Source: Escherichia phage HY03. From it: a DNA stretch of 64,000 bases. The notes under the pieces were generated by a model. The model saw nothing but the letters and a program-made list of their open reading frames with translations, was not told where the DNA came from and did not search any database. The stretch is from sequence record NC_031047.1; one strand, given 5' to 3'. A program made the translations under genes and the position numbers. Position 1 is the first letter of the stretch; each line of letters starts with the position of its first letter. Below, piece by piece: positions 32,825 to 47,526 of the stretch.

Positions 32825-35800
32825 TTATTCAACCCATTCAAATTTAACCGTTTTATTCACTGGGTCAGGAATAATGCGAACATTACCAATTCGTAAGAAA
32901 TCACGAATAGTAAGATTACCCATTATAGCATTATCAGATGGTAAAGCACCGATATCAGATGGTTGTGGAGGGTTACCTCCATCAAATACCTGAACAAAAC
33001 TTGACCAAGAGTTTTTGGTTTTCTGCCATGTACGTGTCCAGCGAGTGGTACGCGCTTCTGGCGTCGTTGGATAAGTAATCCAATCTTGGTAAAGCGAATC
33101 AAGTGTATTACCAAACTGAGTCAATGTACCAGGAGATTTAACCTCTTCACCACGTTCTAAGTATGGAAGTCCAGTCACTTCATTAGTTTTTTCAACCATT
33201 TTAAAATAACCCGGGAACTGGTTATAAGTGGCTGAATCGTTAATATCAATTGACCAGAATCCTACAGTTTCAGATGTTGGTGCACGGGTGTATAAATCAG
33301 ATGTTTTAGTACCCTGAGAACGAATTCTCGAGTTAACAGTCAAACCGCCTGAATTTATAGTAGCACCTTTGGCAATGATTAAGCTTTCACCAATTGTAAC
33401 CTGACCAGATTGATTATTAATTGATAATGGACGTAATCCATTAAATCCACCAGTCTGATCGCCAGATGCAGTAAGCATAAAATAGGTGTTAGCAGCATCA
33501 TTACGAATAAAGAATCCATAATCACCGTTTATTGCTCTAAAAGCATTCGACGATTTACTGATAAATTCGCCATTAGCAGTAACTGAACTACCGAATGTTG
33601 CAACGCCATTCGCATTCAATGTTCCTGAAGCATTCACATTTATCGGTGTTACTGTACCATTGATATTAAATGTTATATTACCAGCTTTATTGCGCTGAGA
33701 ATAAAAGTGACTAGACGTTTCATCACTAACTTCAAATACGGTAGAACGTGTTGTGTCCGATTCACCACTGAATTGATTTCCCCACACTCTGACTGTCATC
33801 GTTTGAGCCGGATTCGTTCCAGTTTGAGGTCCTTTCTCAAAAATCAGACGAGTTGCTGTTCCAGTATTAGAAATGGTTAGTGTACTATTTGCTGAAACTG
33901 ATCCACCGAACGTAGCAGTACTAGATGATACAAGAGGGGCACTCAGATTCGTTTGTTGGGTTAAGGTTAGTGAACCATTAACCGTTTGTGCAATATCCCT
34001 ACGAATGAACTGAGATGAATCTAGACCATCCAGTAAATTACTATCTACAGCTTTTGCTTTTAACGGCAAATAATTTGCTAATACACGGTTTAATTCATAT
34101 GGTGATACTGCATAGCTATTTTTCTCATACAGTTCTAAATCTTGGGTAGAACCGACTGTATCATTACCAACGAATGTAATTGAACCAGATGAAGTTTTAA
34201 CAAAGCCCCTTATCGCAGTAGTCGCTGCCCAAGTAGGTTCACTCTGCGCAATCCATTTTAAATTTTTTGGAGATACAGCAGTATTTGCTGATGTTCCAGT
34301 CACAGTTTCAGACTGAGTTGCAACTTTAATAACACCTTCTTGCGCTTCAGTAGATTTAGTACCTAAAAGCTTTTTAGGAGTTATTAAAACATTATCTAAT
34401 GTTCCTGCAGCAGCTTCGACCTGTGTAGCTACACGAAGTGTACCACGTTGTGTCTCATTTGCTTCAAGAATATTAAGGGTATAATGGTCCCAGAGAGTTC
34501 CTGATTCAACTAATCCAGATAGAGCAACAACAGAAGTACGATCAGTACTGTTAAATCTAGTTTTAATTTTTAATGGTGTAGAGATACGAGTATCGTCGAC
34601 GCCTGCGTCGAATTCAACTTGCGTAGCAATTTCAGCTATACCACTTAAACTTTCAGTTGCTCTACGGTCATTTAAAGTTTTAGGAGTGACTGCACGAGTA
34701 TAATCAGTTCCTGTATTAACTTCACTTTGCGTAGCAATTTCAATTAAACCAATTCTTGCATCAGTTGATGTCTTTTTATGTAACGTTTCTGGCGTTACAA
34801 CCGCATTTGCCCATCCTTCTTGGCTTTGTCCAGCAATTACTTCACTTTCAACTGCTAAAATTACTGCACCTTGTTGCGTTGGAGTAGCTTTATACTGATC
34901 CAGTGCTTTAGGCGAAACAACTAAATTATTAGTATTTTTATTATAAACATTTGTACCATTTAATTCACGACTAGAGGCTGGAGTAGCACCTGCAGTAGAT
35001 ACAAAAGTTACAATACCAGATAATGACTCAGAACCTTGACGAGCTTGAAGCTTTTTAGGAGTGATGATTGTAGTATCATCAGTACCTGTATTAGTTTCCT
35101 GCTGCGTAGCAATTTCAGCAACACCTCTGCGAGTTTCTGTAGCAGTTCTTTCATTCAGCTTTTTAGGAGTGATGATAAGGTCATCAGCAAAAGAGAATGT
35201 AGTGTTCTGATTTACTTGAGCAGTAGTTGCTATTCTTGCGATACCTCTACGAGTTTCTGTAGCAGTACGGTTAGCTAATGTTTCTGGAGTAATTGCTAAT
35301 TCTTTTTGTGGAGAATTTTCTAAATCGACGTTAGCTTGGGCTTGTGTAGCTAAAGCAATTACGCCTAATCTTGCTCTAGTAGAATCATTTAAAGAGTCTA
35401 CTCTTTCAACTGTTGGAACGTTTTGTTGTACAACCCAATATTTTCCATCAGAATCTTCTATATAAGCAAGCTGTAAAACTGGAACATAATTAGTTTCGCC
35501 GTTAAAAACTAATTCTTGAACAGTCACCCATTCAGCTTCAGGTGGATATTCTGAGCGTTTTGGGAATTGCAGCAATTGAACTGAAGAAGCAATTTTATCT
35601 TCACCGGCAGCTTTGATTTTAACTGTTTGGCCTTTTCTCATGTAATTCATGGAAATTTTAACAGTATCACCAACAGAAATATCAGTCGGAAGCTGAAGTT
35701 CAATTGTCTGAGCTGTTCCGTTATTCGCACCAAATACCATAACTTCTTCATTTGGACGAATATTAGAATTAGTCGTTATAATGCGTAAACGCGCTTTACT

Positions 35801-36694
35801 ATCCCCGTCAAACAATCTCCACAATTTCTCATTATCATCAAACATTAAGAAACCGTCAATCGTTGTACGGCCTTCAATGGAATGAGTTCCAACTTCTTGT
35901 ATTGAAGTCGTTTCATCGTATGTAGTAACAATTGTATGATAAAGCGGATTTAGTTTATCTAAATCGACGAAATTAATAATATCGCCATGATTAGCAAATC
36001 TTGGAAGTTTAACATTAATTGGTGCAGCAGAAGTAAATCTACGTACGATAAAATCGTTTGATTGCGCTTGATAGAGACTCGCAGGCGTTACAACTACAGC
36101 TTCTCTACTATAATCAGCGACATACATTTGCCACAGACGATTACTAAAAATTAAAACTAGCTGTGACTTTGGATGAGTCATTAGTACTGAACGTACCTGT
36201 TCACCTCTAAAGTTTACAATACTTTGCACTGGAGCTACAATTAAAACTTGGTTAACACCAGGTTTTCCTCCAATGTCTTGGAGAACGATAGTATCTCCAT
36301 CAATTGGGGAAGATGGTAAAGTAAATGTAATGTCATTACCAGCTGCAGTATCAACTGAAATTGATTCGCCTGACTTTAATTGATAAGGTCCTGATGAAAC
36401 AGTTGTCCAATTAGCATCAGTACGTAATGCTCTCCAACGTACGCTATTAAAAGCTCCTGCTGGTTTTGGAATATCATTTATAGCAGCCCAAAAGCGGTTA
36501 TCATAAATGATTACAAAATCTTTTAAATATCCACGAGTTGGATCATATTGTTGAACTGTGTTTTCTTGAATTAAGTAATCAACGTTAACACCGTCAGTTC
36601 CTACGGTACGATCAGCTAAAGCTACGTTGATTATTTTATCGCCACCTGCGTCCAGACCGTCTTCTGCTCTGAACTTTCTTTTAATCTCGGCCAT
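32825..36694 (-). CDS. 34: gp34 long tail fibre proximal subunit
   Basis: 1289 aa, same length as recalled T4 gp34. Confidence 0.93.
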   Translation of the reverse strand: MAEIKRKFRAEDGLDAGGDKIINVALADRTVGTDGVNVDYLIQENTVQQYDPTRGYLKDFVIIYDNRFWAAINDIPKPAGAFNSVRWRALRTDANWTTVSSGPYQLKSGESISVDTAAGNDITFTLPSSPIDGDTIVLQDIGGKPGVNQVLIVAPVQSIVNFRGEQVRSVLMTHPKSQLVLIFSNRLWQMYVADYSREAVVVTPASLYQAQSNDFIVRRFTSAAPINVKLPRFANHGDIINFVDLDKLNPLYHTIVTTYDETTSIQEVGTHSIEGRTTIDGFLMFDDNEKLWRLFDGDSKARLRIITTNSNIRPNEEVMVFGANNGTAQTIELQLPTDISVGDTVKISMNYMRKGQTVKIKAAGEDKIASSVQLLQFPKRSEYPPEAEWVTVQELVFNGETNYVPVLQLAYIEDSDGKYWVVQQNVPTVERVDSLNDSTRARLGVIALATQAQANVDLENSPQKELAITPETLANRTATETRRGIARIATTAQVNQNTTFSFADDLIITPKKLNERTATETRRGVAEIATQQETNTGTDDTTIITPKKLQARQGSESLSGIVTFVSTAGATPASSRELNGTNVYNKNTNNLVVSPKALDQYKATPTQQGAVILAVESEVIAGQSQEGWANAVVTPETLHKKTSTDARIGLIEIATQSEVNTGTDYTRAVTPKTLNDRRATESLSGIAEIATQVEFDAGVDDTRISTPLKIKTRFNSTDRTSVVALSGLVESGTLWDHYTLNILEANETQRGTLRVATQVEAAAGTLDNVLITPKKLLGTKSTEAQEGVIKVATQSETVTGTSANTAVSPKNLKWIAQSEPTWAATTAIRGFVKTSSGSITFVGNDTVGSTQDLELYEKNSYAVSPYELNRVLANYLPLKAKAVDSNLLDGLDSSQFIRRDIAQTVNGSLTLTQQTNLSAPLVSSSTATFGGSVSANSTLTISNTGTATRLIFEKGPQTGTNPAQTMTVRVWGNQFSGESDTTRSTVFEVSDETSSHFYSQRNKAGNITFNINGTVTPINVNASGTLNANGVATFGSSVTANGEFISKSSNAFRAINGDYGFFIRNDAANTYFMLTASGDQTGGFNGLRPLSINNQSGQVTIGESLIIAKGATINSGGLTVNSRIRSQGTKTSDLYTRAPTSETVGFWSIDINDSATYNQFPGYFKMVEKTNEVTGLPYLERGEEVKSPGTLTQFGNTLDSLYQDWITYPTTPEARTTRWTRTWQKTKNSWSSFVQVFDGGNPPQPSDIGALPSDNAIMGNLTIRDFLRIGNVRIIPDPVNKTVKFEWVE

Positions 36695-41364: not shown

Positions 41365-44064
<2,700 letters not shown>

Positions 44065-44075
44065 TTTTAATTTAA

Positions 44076-44351
44076 TTGCGAGGATATATGATTTTACGAT
44101 TTAAAGATACTTCTGGTGTAGTTCTTTTTACACTTCCTAATCCAAGTGAGTTAGAAGTTCCAGGACCAAATCAGCCTATTATCATTTATGGCAAAAAATA
44201 TTATACTCATAAAATGACTCGTGAGTATTTTGATAATAAAATTTCCACAGTTAAAACTTCTTCTGATTGTTATTATGATATTACTGTTTTAACGGAAGAA
44301 CAATATGAACACCTACAACCGCGCGGGCCGTCTATGCCGGGTAGTGAATAA
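44076..44351 (+). CDS. hypothetical protein (nrdA.2 position)
   Basis: 91-aa ORF. Confidence 0.45.
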
Positions 44352-44630
44352 ATACAAATCCGACTTTGATGTTAATATTCACCGTGGTACATTTAGAGCC
44401 TTTACGTCGGTAAAGATGCTGGCAGCCGGGAGGCTGCCATTGAATTATTCAAAAAAGATTTTATACGTCGAATTAAATCCGGAGAAATAACTAAAGAACA
44501 TTTAGAGCCTTTACGTGGAATGAGGCTAGGATGCACATGTAAACCAAAGCCGTGTCATGGTGATATAATAGCTCATATAGTTAACCGATTGTTTAAAGAC
44601 GATTTTCAAGTTGAGGACTTATGCAATTAA
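44305..44630 (+). pseudogene. small Cys-rich protein gene split across two reading frames; candidate pseudogene or recoding site
   Basis: N-terminal frame 44305..44490 and C-terminal frame 44397..44630 (no start codon) together resemble one small protein; the frame switch lies in the first copy of a 19-nt direct repeat. Confidence 0.4.
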
Positions 44631-46885
44631 TTAATGTTATCAAAAGTAGTGGTGTTTCTCAGAGCTTTGACCCGCAAAAAATTATTAAAGTTTTATCTTG
44701 GGCAGCTGAAGGAACATCAGTAGATCCTTATGAATTATATGAAAATATTAAATCTTATCTCCGTGATGGAATGACAACTGATGATATTCAGACTATTGTC
44801 ATTAAGGCTGCTGCAAATTCTATTTCAGTTGAAGAGCCTGATTACCAATATGTAGCCGCTCGCTGTTTAATGTTTGCTCTTCGTAAGCATGTTTATGGGC
44901 AGTATGAACCACGTTCATTTATTGACCATATTTCTTATTGTGTAAATGCAGGTAAATATGACCCTGAATTGTTGTCAAAATATTCTGCAGAAGAAATTAC
45001 ATTTTTAGAATCAAAAATTAAGCACGAGCGGGATATGGAATTTACTTATTCCGGGGCGATGCAATTAAAAGAAAAATATCTAGTTAAAGATAAAACCACT
45101 GGTCAAATTTATGAAACTCCGCAGTTTGCATTTATGACTATTGGAATGGCACTGCATCAAGATGAACCTGTTGATAGATTAAAACATGTTATCCGTTTTT
45201 ATGAAGCAGTATCTACTCGACAGATTTCATTGCCAACTCCTATTATGGCTGGTTGTCGTACTCCTACTCGACAGTTCAGTTCATGCGTTGTTATTGAGGC
45301 AGGAGATTCGCTGAAGTCTATCAATAAGGCTTCTGCTTCAATTGTTGAATATATCTCCAAACGAGCTGGAATCGGCATTAACGTTGGTATGATTCGTGCC
45401 GAAGGTTCTAAGATTGGCATGGGTGAAGTACGCCATACTGGTGTTATTCCTTTTTGGAAACATTTTCAGACTGCTGTTAAATCATGCTCACAGGGTGGAA
45501 TTCGTGGCGGCGCTGCTACTGCTTATTATCCTATTTGGCATTTGGAAGTTGAAAATCTTCTCGTTTTGAAAAATAACAAAGGCGTAGAAGAAAACCGCAT
45601 CCGTCATATGGATTATAGTGTTCAGCTGAATGATTTGATGATGGAACGATTCGGAAAGAATGATTATATTACTTTGTTCAGTCCGCATGAAATGGGTGGC
45701 GAGCTTTATTATTCTTATTTTAAAGACCAAGACCGTTTCCGTGAATTATACGAAGCAGCAGAAAAAGACCCTAATATTCGTAAAAAGCGTATTAAAGCCC
45801 GTGAACTATTTGAATTGCTCATGACTGAACGTTCAGGGACAGCAAGGATTTATGTACAGTTCATTGATAATACGAATAACTATACTCCGTTTATTCGTGA
45901 AAAGGCACCTATTCGTCAGAGTAACTTGTGCTGTGAAATTGCTATTCCAACAAATGATGTGAATAGCCCTGATGCTGAAATTGGATTGTGTACTCTCTCT
46001 GCATTCGTACTGGATAATTTTGACTGGCAAGACCAAGATAAAATTAATGAATTGGCAGAAGTCCAAGTTCGTGCTCTTGATAATCTTTTGGATTACCAAG
46101 GATATCCAGTTCCTGAAGCAGAAAAAGCTAAAAAGCGTCGTAACCTCGGTGTAGGTGTTACCAACTATGCAGCTTGGCTGGCAAGTAACTTTGCTTCTTA
46201 TGAAGATGCTAACGATTTAACACATGAACTATTTGAGAGATTACAGTATGGACTCATTAAAGCATCCATTAAGCTCGCCAAAGAAAAAGGACCTTGCGAA
46301 TATTATTCAGACACTCGTTGGTCTCGAGGCGAATTACCTATCGACTGGTACAATAAAAAGATTGACCAAATCGCAGCTCCAAAATACGTTTGTGACTGGT
46401 CGGCGCTGCGGGAAGACCTTAAGCTCTTTGGCATCCGTAATAGCACATTATCAGCACTTATGCCATGTGAGTCATCTTCCCAAGTTTCTAACAGTACAAA
46501 TGGTATCGAGCCTCCACGTGGACCAGTCTCTGTTAAAGAATCAAAAGAGGGCTCCTTTAATCAAGTCGTGCCCAATATTGAGCATAACATAGACCTTTAC
46601 GACTATACATGGAAATTAGCTAAGAAAGGTAATAAACCTTATCTTACGCAGGTAGCTATTATGCTGAAATGGGTATGTCAATCAGCTTCAGCGAATACAT
46701 ATTATGACCCGCAGATTTTTCCAAAAGGAAAGGTTCCAATGTCTGTAATGATTGATGACCTTTTGTATTTTTGGTATTTTGGCGGAAAAAATTTCTATTA
46801 TCATAATACTCGTGATGGTTCCGGTACTGATGATTACGAAATAGAAACTCCAAAAGCCGATGATTGCGCAGCGTGTAAATTGTAA
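44621..46885 (+). CDS. nrdA: aerobic ribonucleotide reductase large subunit
   Basis: 754 aa; class Ia RNR alpha; matches recalled T4 NrdA length. Confidence 0.95.
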   Translation: MQLINVIKSSGVSQSFDPQKIIKVLSWAAEGTSVDPYELYENIKSYLRDGMTTDDIQTIVIKAAANSISVEEPDYQYVAARCLMFALRKHVYGQYEPRSFIDHISYCVNAGKYDPELLSKYSAEEITFLESKIKHERDMEFTYSGAMQLKEKYLVKDKTTGQIYETPQFAFMTIGMALHQDEPVDRLKHVIRFYEAVSTRQISLPTPIMAGCRTPTRQFSSCVVIEAGDSLKSINKASASIVEYISKRAGIGINVGMIRAEGSKIGMGEVRHTGVIPFWKHFQTAVKSCSQGGIRGGAATAYYPIWHLEVENLLVLKNNKGVEENRIRHMDYSVQLNDLMMERFGKNDYITLFSPHEMGGELYYSYFKDQDRFRELYEAAEKDPNIRKKRIKARELFELLMTERSGTARIYVQFIDNTNNYTPFIREKAPIRQSNLCCEIAIPTNDVNSPDAEIGLCTLSAFVLDNFDWQDQDKINELAEVQVRALDNLLDYQGYPVPEAEKAKKRRNLGVGVTNYAAWLASNFASYEDANDLTHELFERLQYGLIKASIKLAKEKGPCEYYSDTRWSRGELPIDWYNKKIDQIAAPKYVCDWSALREDLKLFGIRNSTLSALMPCESSSQVSNSTNGIEPPRGPVSVKESKEGSFNQVVPNIEHNIDLYDYTWKLAKKGNKPYLTQVAIMLKWVCQSASANTYYDPQIFPKGKVPMSVMIDDLLYFWYFGGKNFYYHNTRDGSGTDDYEIETPKADDCAACKL

Positions 46886-47526
46886 TGAATTATCAAAAAA
46901 TCTATAATGACCTAATTTCCCGAGCTCAGGCTCGGGAATCTTTATCAGAATATAAAGAGACACATCATATAATCCCTAGATGTATGGGAGGTTCTGATGA
47001 TAAGGAAAATTTAGTTGAATTAACAGGTAGAGAGCATTTTATAGCGCATTGGCTTTTATGTAAAATATATGACACTCCAGGATTAAAGAAAGCTTTTGGT
47101 TTAATGTGCTTGACTGGTAAAAATCGCTCATATAAAATTTCTTCTCAACTATACGAATTAGGTAGACGACGTTTGTCTGAAGCTGCTATAGGACGTGAAG
47201 TTTCTACAGAAACCAGAGAAAAGATAAGTAGAGCTCTTAAAGGAAGGAAATTTACTAAAGAGCATTTAGCTCGCATGAGAAAACCTAAAACTGAAGAAGC
47301 TAAAAAGAATATAGCTGCTGCTAAAGTCGGCGTGCTTAATCCAATGTATGGTACAATCTCTCCAACGAGAGATGTTCCTCATACTAAAGAAACTCGCGAT
47401 TTGATTTCTTTGAGAACTAAACAAGGTGCAGAGTATCCGCCGTGTCCGCATTGTGGAAAGAAAGTTAATAAAGGTAATGCTTTAAGATGGCATTATGATA
47501 AATGTAAATTTAAGGATTCTAAATGA
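46885..47526 (+). CDS. mobE: MobE free-standing HNH homing endonuclease
   Basis: 213 aa; ETHHIIPRCMGGSDDKENLV...HF HNH motif; sits between nrdA and nrdB; paralog of mobA. Confidence 0.8.
   Translation: MNYQKIYNDLISRAQARESLSEYKETHHIIPRCMGGSDDKENLVELTGREHFIAHWLLCKIYDTPGLKKAFGLMCLTGKNRSYKISSQLYELGRRRLSEAAIGREVSTETREKISRALKGRKFTKEHLARMRKPKTEEAKKNIAAAKVGVLNPMYGTISPTRDVPHTKETRDLISLRTKQGAEYPPCPHCGKKVNKGNALRWHYDKCKFKDSK

Follow-up and report, generated by a model that had tools for sequence, protein, structure and literature searches.

Templated mutagenesis between imperfect direct repeats has reportedly been shown experimentally in phage T4 by Schultz and Drake in 2008 (Genetics 178:661), and earlier misalignment models are said to go back to Ripley and colleagues. 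The mutations of the T4 system reportedly combine clustered base changes with a change of 1 nt in length, copied from a nearby imperfect repeat, with short homologies on both sides and a donor that stays unchanged. The natural allele described here, which occurs in the same phage group, is alike in all these respects; the T4 cases, however, were laboratory mutants selected in reporter genes, whereas the present allele is carried by wild isolates and affects a gene without a selectable phenotype. Events of this kind are familiar from laboratory work on T4 genetics; the natural instance described here is new.

Two other systems come close to the locus. Streisinger slippage at homopolymer runs produces frameshifts, the classic examples being the rII hotspots of T4; its outcome, a frameshift pseudogene, is the same as here, and alleles of this type (A6 to A7 and G4 to G3) are found in nrdA.1 of other phages. 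Nevertheless, simple slippage cannot have made the present allele, since the lesion lies outside a homopolymer and involves five changed bases as well as a change in length. In dnaX-type -1 frameshifting, the slippery heptamer is A AAA AAG, and the identical heptamer is found in the right phase in the broken frame of nrdA.1; unlike in the dnaX type, the 3' stimulatory structure is missing, the arrangement is not conserved, the ancestral heptamer is out of phase and the product would lack conserved residues.

The interval between nrdA.2 and nrdA is best explained as a pseudogene of the T4 gene nrdA.1, which encodes a DUF4326 protein of 108 codons. A literature search on nrdA.1 returned two incidental mentions and no functional work, and a sequence search of the PDB found no relative.

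The nrdA.1 interval and its two frames

The window, by which the whole analysed stretch of 64,000 nucleotides is meant, belongs to a T4-like phage of the genus Tequatrovirus. Its best matches over 20 kb in the phage collection are JEP6 (97.6%) and ELT1 (96.4%), none being better than 97.6%. The genes at the locus follow one another in the order td exon 1, group I intron with I-TevI, td exon 2, nrdA.2, nrdA.1 and nrdA, and the td - nrdA.2 - nrdA.1 - nrdA synteny matches that of T4, T2, RB32 and RB51, in which nrdA.2 is annotated under the same name. The slot between nrdA.2 and nrdA is orthologous to that of T4 nrdA.1 (NP_049846; DUF4326, PF14216) and shows the same 10-nt overlap with nrdA; at its other end, the 3' end of nrdA.2 and the start of nrdA.1 overlap by 47 nt. 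The synteny expected of a DUF4326/NrdA.1 gene is present in the window, but the single ORF of about 100-110 codons that is also expected is absent. The interval is composed as follows:

44088..44351, plus strand: nrdA.2 (DUF5496), intact (Pfam PF17600, 191 bits, full profile length)
44305..44394, plus strand: nrdA.1 codons 1-30 in the native frame, 100% identical to the intact orthologue by tblastn
44395..44490, plus strand: out-of-frame tail of the truncated ORF (RAFTSVKMLAAGRLPLNYSKKILYVELNPEK), with its stop at 44488-90
44403..44630, plus strand: nrdA.1 codons 34-108 in the -1 frame, without a start codon of their own; the invariant C-x-C-x-P-x2-C-H-G, then a nearly invariant D, are kept
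44621..46885, plus strand: nrdA, intact, its ATG and GAGGA ribosome-binding site lying within the 3' end of nrdA.1

A preliminary description of this DNA, made from the letters alone, had reported an ORF at 44305..44490 and a start-less open frame at 44397..44630 running over the ATG of nrdA, and both are present as stated. The former encodes 61 aa up to the stop codon at 44488-90; a protein of exactly this sequence is annotated in phage HY03, and this N-terminal ORF has no Pfam match. The latter has its first ATG at 44520 and passes over the nrdA ATG at 44621. When the intact orthologue is used in tblastn, residues 1-30 are found at 44305-44394 and residues 34-108 at 44403-44627, in the other frame, and residues 31-33 (W-G-N) are absent from nrdA.1 of the window. 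Identity with the RB32-type intact protein amounts to 100% over residues 1-30 and to 98.7% over residues 34-108. While T4, T2, RB32 and RB51 possess one uninterrupted ORF, the window has two frames and has lost W31-G32-N33.

The T4 gene is uninterrupted over 108 codons, which agrees with the length of about 108 codons previously given for the restored ORF, and begins at the ATG equivalent to 44305. This ATG must be the true start of nrdA.1, since C11, R12, V13, V14 and N15, all of them invariant or nearly so in the homologue alignment, precede the GTG that is annotated as the start in RB32. Two alignments of NrdA.1 homologues, of 28 and of 39 sequences and reaching down to 42-45% identity, show R27, G28, G32 and N33 as invariant, and T29 and W31 as at least 90% conserved. 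The WGN motif is found at the acceptor site in distant homologues too, from phages of Acinetobacter, Serratia, Pectobacterium and Providencia.

The resemblance to DUF4326, which the preliminary description had proposed, is borne out by Pfam (PF14216): against a cut-off of 25, the C-terminal frame 44397-44630 reaches 55.8 bits, over profile positions 27-81 only, and 78.7 bits are reached by the intact orthologue of RB32, which covers positions 1-81 of 82. No second copy of DUF4326 was found in the window. The C-terminal block G-C-x-C-x-P-x2-C-H-G-D survives unbroken in the native frame (44529-44563), beyond the reach of the nrdA.1 start codon. The N-terminal block R-G-T-x-W-G-N is broken: its place is taken in the window by R-G-T-F-R-A-F, after which the reading is out of frame. 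With the WGN block lost, nrdA.1 of the window appears to be a remnant of the family and not a functional member, and the conservation of the missing residues suggests that the gene is non-functional.

The replaced tract and its donor

The exact 19-nt direct repeat ACATTTAGAGCCTTTACGT, whose copies had been placed at 44389-44407 and 44498-44516, is confirmed at both positions and is far beyond chance: a repeat longer than 16 nt occurred in none of 2000 shuffles of the region 44000-44700. In the whole 64-kb window, only one other pair of exact repeats of at least 19 nt has its copies no more than 500 nt apart (35049/35157). This pair, at 35049-35068 and 35157-35176, is a 20-nt exact direct repeat with a spacing of 108 nt, which encodes a reiterated IITPKKL in the 1289-aa gp34-like long-tail-fibre gene (32825-36694, minus strand), and is an ordinary protein-level repeat. 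The two copies of the 19-nt repeat sit in different codon phases, as had been described: in the frame of the first ORF the upstream copy gives T F R A F T, and in the native frame the downstream copy gives (E)H L E P L R. The two sites are:

44389..44407, plus strand: acceptor site, at present identical to the donor (ACATTT at 44389-94, AGAGCCT at 44395-44401, TTACGT at 44402-07)
44498..44516, plus strand: donor site ACATTT AGAGCCT TTACGT, unchanged, encoding (K/E)HLEPLR of the native protein

The alignment with the T4, RB and T2 homologues, which had been proposed as a check, gives an intact 108-codon ORF in these phages and the ancestral tract at the upstream site. The ancestral upstream site is ACATTT-TGGGGAAA-TTACGT, encoding T F W G N Y V, and is found in about 97% of some 480 related phage records, T4, T2, RB32 and RB51 among others. 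The acceptor site of T4 reads ACATTTTGGGGAAATTACGT, and ACATTTTGGGG(A/G)AATTACGT together with an uninterrupted 108-codon ORF is common to T4, T2, RB32, RB33, RB51, NBG2, UFV09 and ESh17. The derived site, ACATTT-AGAGCCT-TTACGT, is carried by the window, SG1, JEP6, ELT1 and pSe_SNUABM_01. The direction of the change is known from outgroups, WGN being the ancestral state at the upstream site.

The lesion is therefore the replacement of the 8-nt TGGGGAAA by the 7-nt AGAGCCT at 44395-44401, which amounts to five substitutions and one deletion. This patch, as the replaced tract will be called, shifts the frame by one base, introduces a native-frame TAG at 44394-96 and removes W31-G32-N33. Restoration of one nucleotide near 44407 had been suggested to give a continuous ORF; the frame would indeed reopen, but the lesion is not a missing base at that position, and a base added back would not restore the protein, since the invariant WGN is gone.

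The source of the new tract is visible in the same gene. The patch allele is identical in 19 of 19 nt to the downstream donor, 109 nt away, and the donor stretch is invariant in all aligned relatives, intact and broken, while the adjacent base 44497 varies (A in the window and in T2, C in others). In T4, as in every intact relative, each of the two sites is bordered by the 6-nt anchors ACATTT and TTACGT, so that the sites, some 110 nt apart, were already imperfect direct repeats before the change. The clustering of the changes, their identity with the donor, the anchors on both sides and the unchanged donor together form the signature of templated mutagenesis between imperfect direct repeats. 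Templated mutation between these repeats, which had been listed first among the candidates as a template-switch patch, is thus very likely to have made the nrdA.1 pseudogene, although the anchors, of 6 nt each, are short.

The changes of the patch represent a single event, given that the intact ESh17 and the carrier SG1 are identical over 421 nt (44325-44745) save for the six patch columns. With the background divergence standing at about 3%, the chance of meeting six differences in a stretch of 8 nt is about 3e-7 per 8-nt position and about 8e-4 for the region. Since an extant intact genome differs from a carrier by the patch alone, the record is an unusually clean one for a natural event. 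For a donor-copied mutation, in the phage group in which such mutations were defined in the laboratory, one can still see the ancestral haplotype, the donor, the anchors and the product.

According to the proposed mechanism, the nascent strand would unpair at one of the 6-nt anchors and re-pair with the matching anchor of the other site; the displaced strand would then copy 7 to 19 nt at the donor and go back by means of the second anchor. The upstream middle tract would in this way be overwritten with the downstream copy in one event, with five bases changed and one lost. The patch allele, which appears to have arisen once, would subsequently have reached a few Tequatrovirus lineages, both by descent and through recombination in its flanks. 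The product of a template switch would look no different from that of a very short gene conversion in a recombination intermediate with misaligned strands; we take a polymerase template switch, and not a misaligned recombination heteroduplex, to be the probable route.

In the predicted DNA folds of both strands, neither the hairpin that lies between the repeat copies nor any other structure brings acceptor and donor together, and hence the folds give the hairpin no role and offer no structural reason for the pairing of the two sites. The ancestral acceptor (window 44380-44411) contains a small quasi-palindrome, ACCG..GTA.ATTT / AAT.TAC..CGGT, which is predicted to fold as ssDNA. Speculatively, such a local hairpin might favour pausing or dissociation of the polymerase at the switch site. 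A donor on the opposite strand (a quasi-palindrome) was rejected as an alternative: between the arm of the hairpin and the complement of the patch, AGGCT is all that agrees, as against 19 of 19 nt in the direct donor.

As to its significance, the allele indicates that templated events can become established in wild phage lineages and that one step may suffice to kill a gene. Moreover, since T4 has both repeat sites, the event is directly testable. For annotation, the patch explains the gap or the odd small ORFs found between nrdA.2 and nrdA in several Tequatrovirus records, and multi-base patches of this kind should not be mended as if they were one-base errors.

Frameshift alleles in related phages

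The patch is rare. Besides the window, it is carried by four distinct isolates (SG1, JEP6, ELT1 and pSe_SNUABM_01) among 485 matching records, JEP6 having one further C-to-T change inside it, and about 475 of the 485 phage records have the intact 84-nt form. An exact search of IMG/VR and JGI metagenome contigs with the 30-nt patch junction gave no match, and the intact 31-mer junction is found in five IMG/VR contigs.

In addition to the patch, three other frameshift alleles of nrdA.1 map to the equivalent of window 44392-44457, where gene callers give 87-aa chimeric ORFs. A change of GGGG to GGG, in the WGN codons, occurs in G2540-3, whose sister isolate G2540 has the intact length; it may be a homopolymer sequencing error. 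An A6 to A7 change is present in nine isolates (Lutter, CHD2BS1, G3G6, G3G7, PM105, PM123, PM133, PM136 and Ec_MI-02), as well as in five assembled contigs from four samples, with differing haplotypes. Finally, a change of GGGAGG to GGGAGGG within the hairpin is known from four assembled contigs and from no isolate. Altogether, nrdA.1 is frameshifted in about 3% of sequenced Tequatrovirus isolates. The existence of three other natural frameshift alleles suggests that nrdA.1 is probably dispensable under at least some conditions.

Whether inactivation has been selected is a separate matter. NrdA.1, a predicted processing enzyme for ADP-ribose derivatives, could be a liability in some hosts, and four independent frameshift alleles in one 327-nt gene (the patch, G4 to G3, A6 to A7 and GGGAGGG, nrdA.1 alone being counted) would fit such selected loss, as would the proposal that DUF4326 proteins act on ADP-ribose phosphates in phage-host conflicts (PMC9503650). 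Homopolymers, however, are simply mutable, some of the metagenome alleles may be assembly errors, the hosts of the carriers (Salmonella, E. coli) show no pattern and the gene is intact in about 97% of the relatives, so that selected loss is considered rather unlikely. The four independent alleles suggest that the gene is conditionally dispensable, which may serve as a hint for tests of DUF4326 in ADP-ribose-based phage-host conflict.

With regard to the number of origins, the patch is found on two very different upstream haplotypes, that of the window, SG1 and JEP6 on the one hand, and that of ELT1 and pSe_SNUABM_01, which is T2-like, on the other. To account for this, recombination must have taken place no further than about 40-80 nt from the patch, or else the identical event must have happened twice. 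A mutational hotspot at which the same templated change took place more than once would account for the two deeply different haplotypes, and is conceivable because a templated change yields the same product every time: such mutations are deterministic, and the substrate, that is both imperfect repeats, is present in nearly all Tequatroviruses, T4 included. Against recurrence, all five carriers have in common the core markers 44355C and 44674G, recombination is very frequent in T4-type phages, and the allele is rare (four isolates in about 480 records, and 0 IMG/VR or JGI metagenome contigs). Moreover, in ELT1 and pSe_SNUABM_01 the T2-like upstream haplotype switches to 44355C just before the patch, as at a recombination breakpoint, although this evidence is weak, since the intact ESh17 has the same upstream haplotype together with 44355C. 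A single origin followed by recombination of the flanks is favoured with good confidence, and recurrence is considered improbable.

A joint reading would treat nrdA.1 as a contingency-like locus, in which a slip at a heptamer downstream of the patch keeps translational coupling into nrdA. Were this so, the product, a predicted ADP-ribose-derivative phosphatase, would be costly or defence-triggering in some hosts, the imperfect repeats and the G4 and A6 runs would act as recurrent off-switches of nrdA.1, and the A AAA AAG, in phase by chance, could return some ribosomes to the native frame. We regard this combination as very unlikely.

Hairpin, heptamer and mobile neighbours

Two further elements lie between or close to the repeat copies:

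44420..44439, plus strand: GC-rich hairpin of 8 bp with a GGGA loop (TGGCAGCC GGGA GGCTGCCA), encoding AGSREAA
44451..44457, plus strand: A AAA AAG heptamer (identical with the A6 run), in X XXY YYZ phase in the broken frame only

The hairpin had been described as 7 bp long, at 44421..44438; its reality and its GGGA loop stand, and its extent is corrected to 8 bp at 44420-44439. It is predicted whether the RNA or either DNA strand is folded, is invariant in intact and broken alleles, and is not terminator-like, a terminator scan of the interval having returned nothing. The heptamer at 44451-57, about 50 nt past the junction, is the sole in-phase slippery heptamer found. A -1 slip there would re-enter the native nrdA.1 frame and hence the overlap with the start of nrdA.

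Programmed -1 recoding, another of the candidates of the preliminary description, supposes that a full-length functional protein is made from the two frames with the hairpin as stimulator. The shift needed is indeed -1, the dnaX-type A AAA AAG is correctly phased in the broken frame and a stable hairpin is close by. Nevertheless, there is no slippery heptamer at the frame junction itself (44397-44412), and the hairpin lies 5' of the heptamer instead of 5-9 nt 3' of it, where the predicted RNA fold leaves the region beyond 44457 unpaired. Furthermore, roughly 97% of the relatives have a single ORF, with the heptamer out of phase, and show the same hairpin and A-run. The arrangement in two frames is not conserved among relatives: the single-ORF form is found in about 475 of 485 records. 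Any shifted product would be without W-G-N, a shift at 44451 would lose residues 31-50 as well, and Rfam contains no recoding element matching the interval. The lack of a junction heptamer and of a 3' structure, the lost WGN and the unchanged intact alleles make programmed recoding very improbable; low-level accidental slippage at the heptamer is possible.

Finally, a sequencing or assembly error, in which the frameshift and the duplicated 19-mer would be artefacts of one assembly, has practically no chance of being right: errors often take the form of a single-base frameshift in a small gene, and the GGGG to GGG of G2540-3 sits in a homopolymer and could be one, but the patch is a multi-base replacement and not a homopolymer miscount, and the occurrence of the same six-column change in four isolates other than the window, each sequenced separately, which come from different laboratories and hosts and whose genomes differ mutually at dozens of flanking positions, together with the identical truncated product encoded by a fifth, HY03, excludes the sequencing indel that had been offered as a candidate.

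Several observations concern the mobile elements around the locus. In the Rfam scan, the td intron was the only match. This group I intron, at window 42740-43749, matches Intron_gpI at 43474-43704 with 42.5 bits, which is below the gathering score of 50, and carries an I-TevI-like ORF at 42868-43605. It is present in five of five carriers of the patch, and ESh17, which has the intact 'parent' haplotype, is without it; the link between intron and patch is not strict, since T4 and NBG2 combine the td intron with an intact nrdA.1. In the 3' part of td exon 2 (window 43907-44052), two deeply divergent haplotypes are found among otherwise close relatives, with dozens of substitutions and with compensating indels of +3, -8 and +5 in about 140 nt. 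The intron insertion site is located a few hundred bases upstream of this stretch, which resembles a mosaic or co-conversion boundary.

On the far side of nrdA, a 213-aa ORF at window 46885-47526 starts at the nrdA stop, and its counterpart in JEP6 and ELT1 is annotated as a homing endonuclease. Elsewhere, nothing lies between nrdA and nrdB in RB33, T2, NBG2 and ESh17, mobE occupies the slot in T4 and a different 'Hef-like' endonuclease is found in SG1. The nrdA-nrdB interval is a variable slot for mobile endonucleases.
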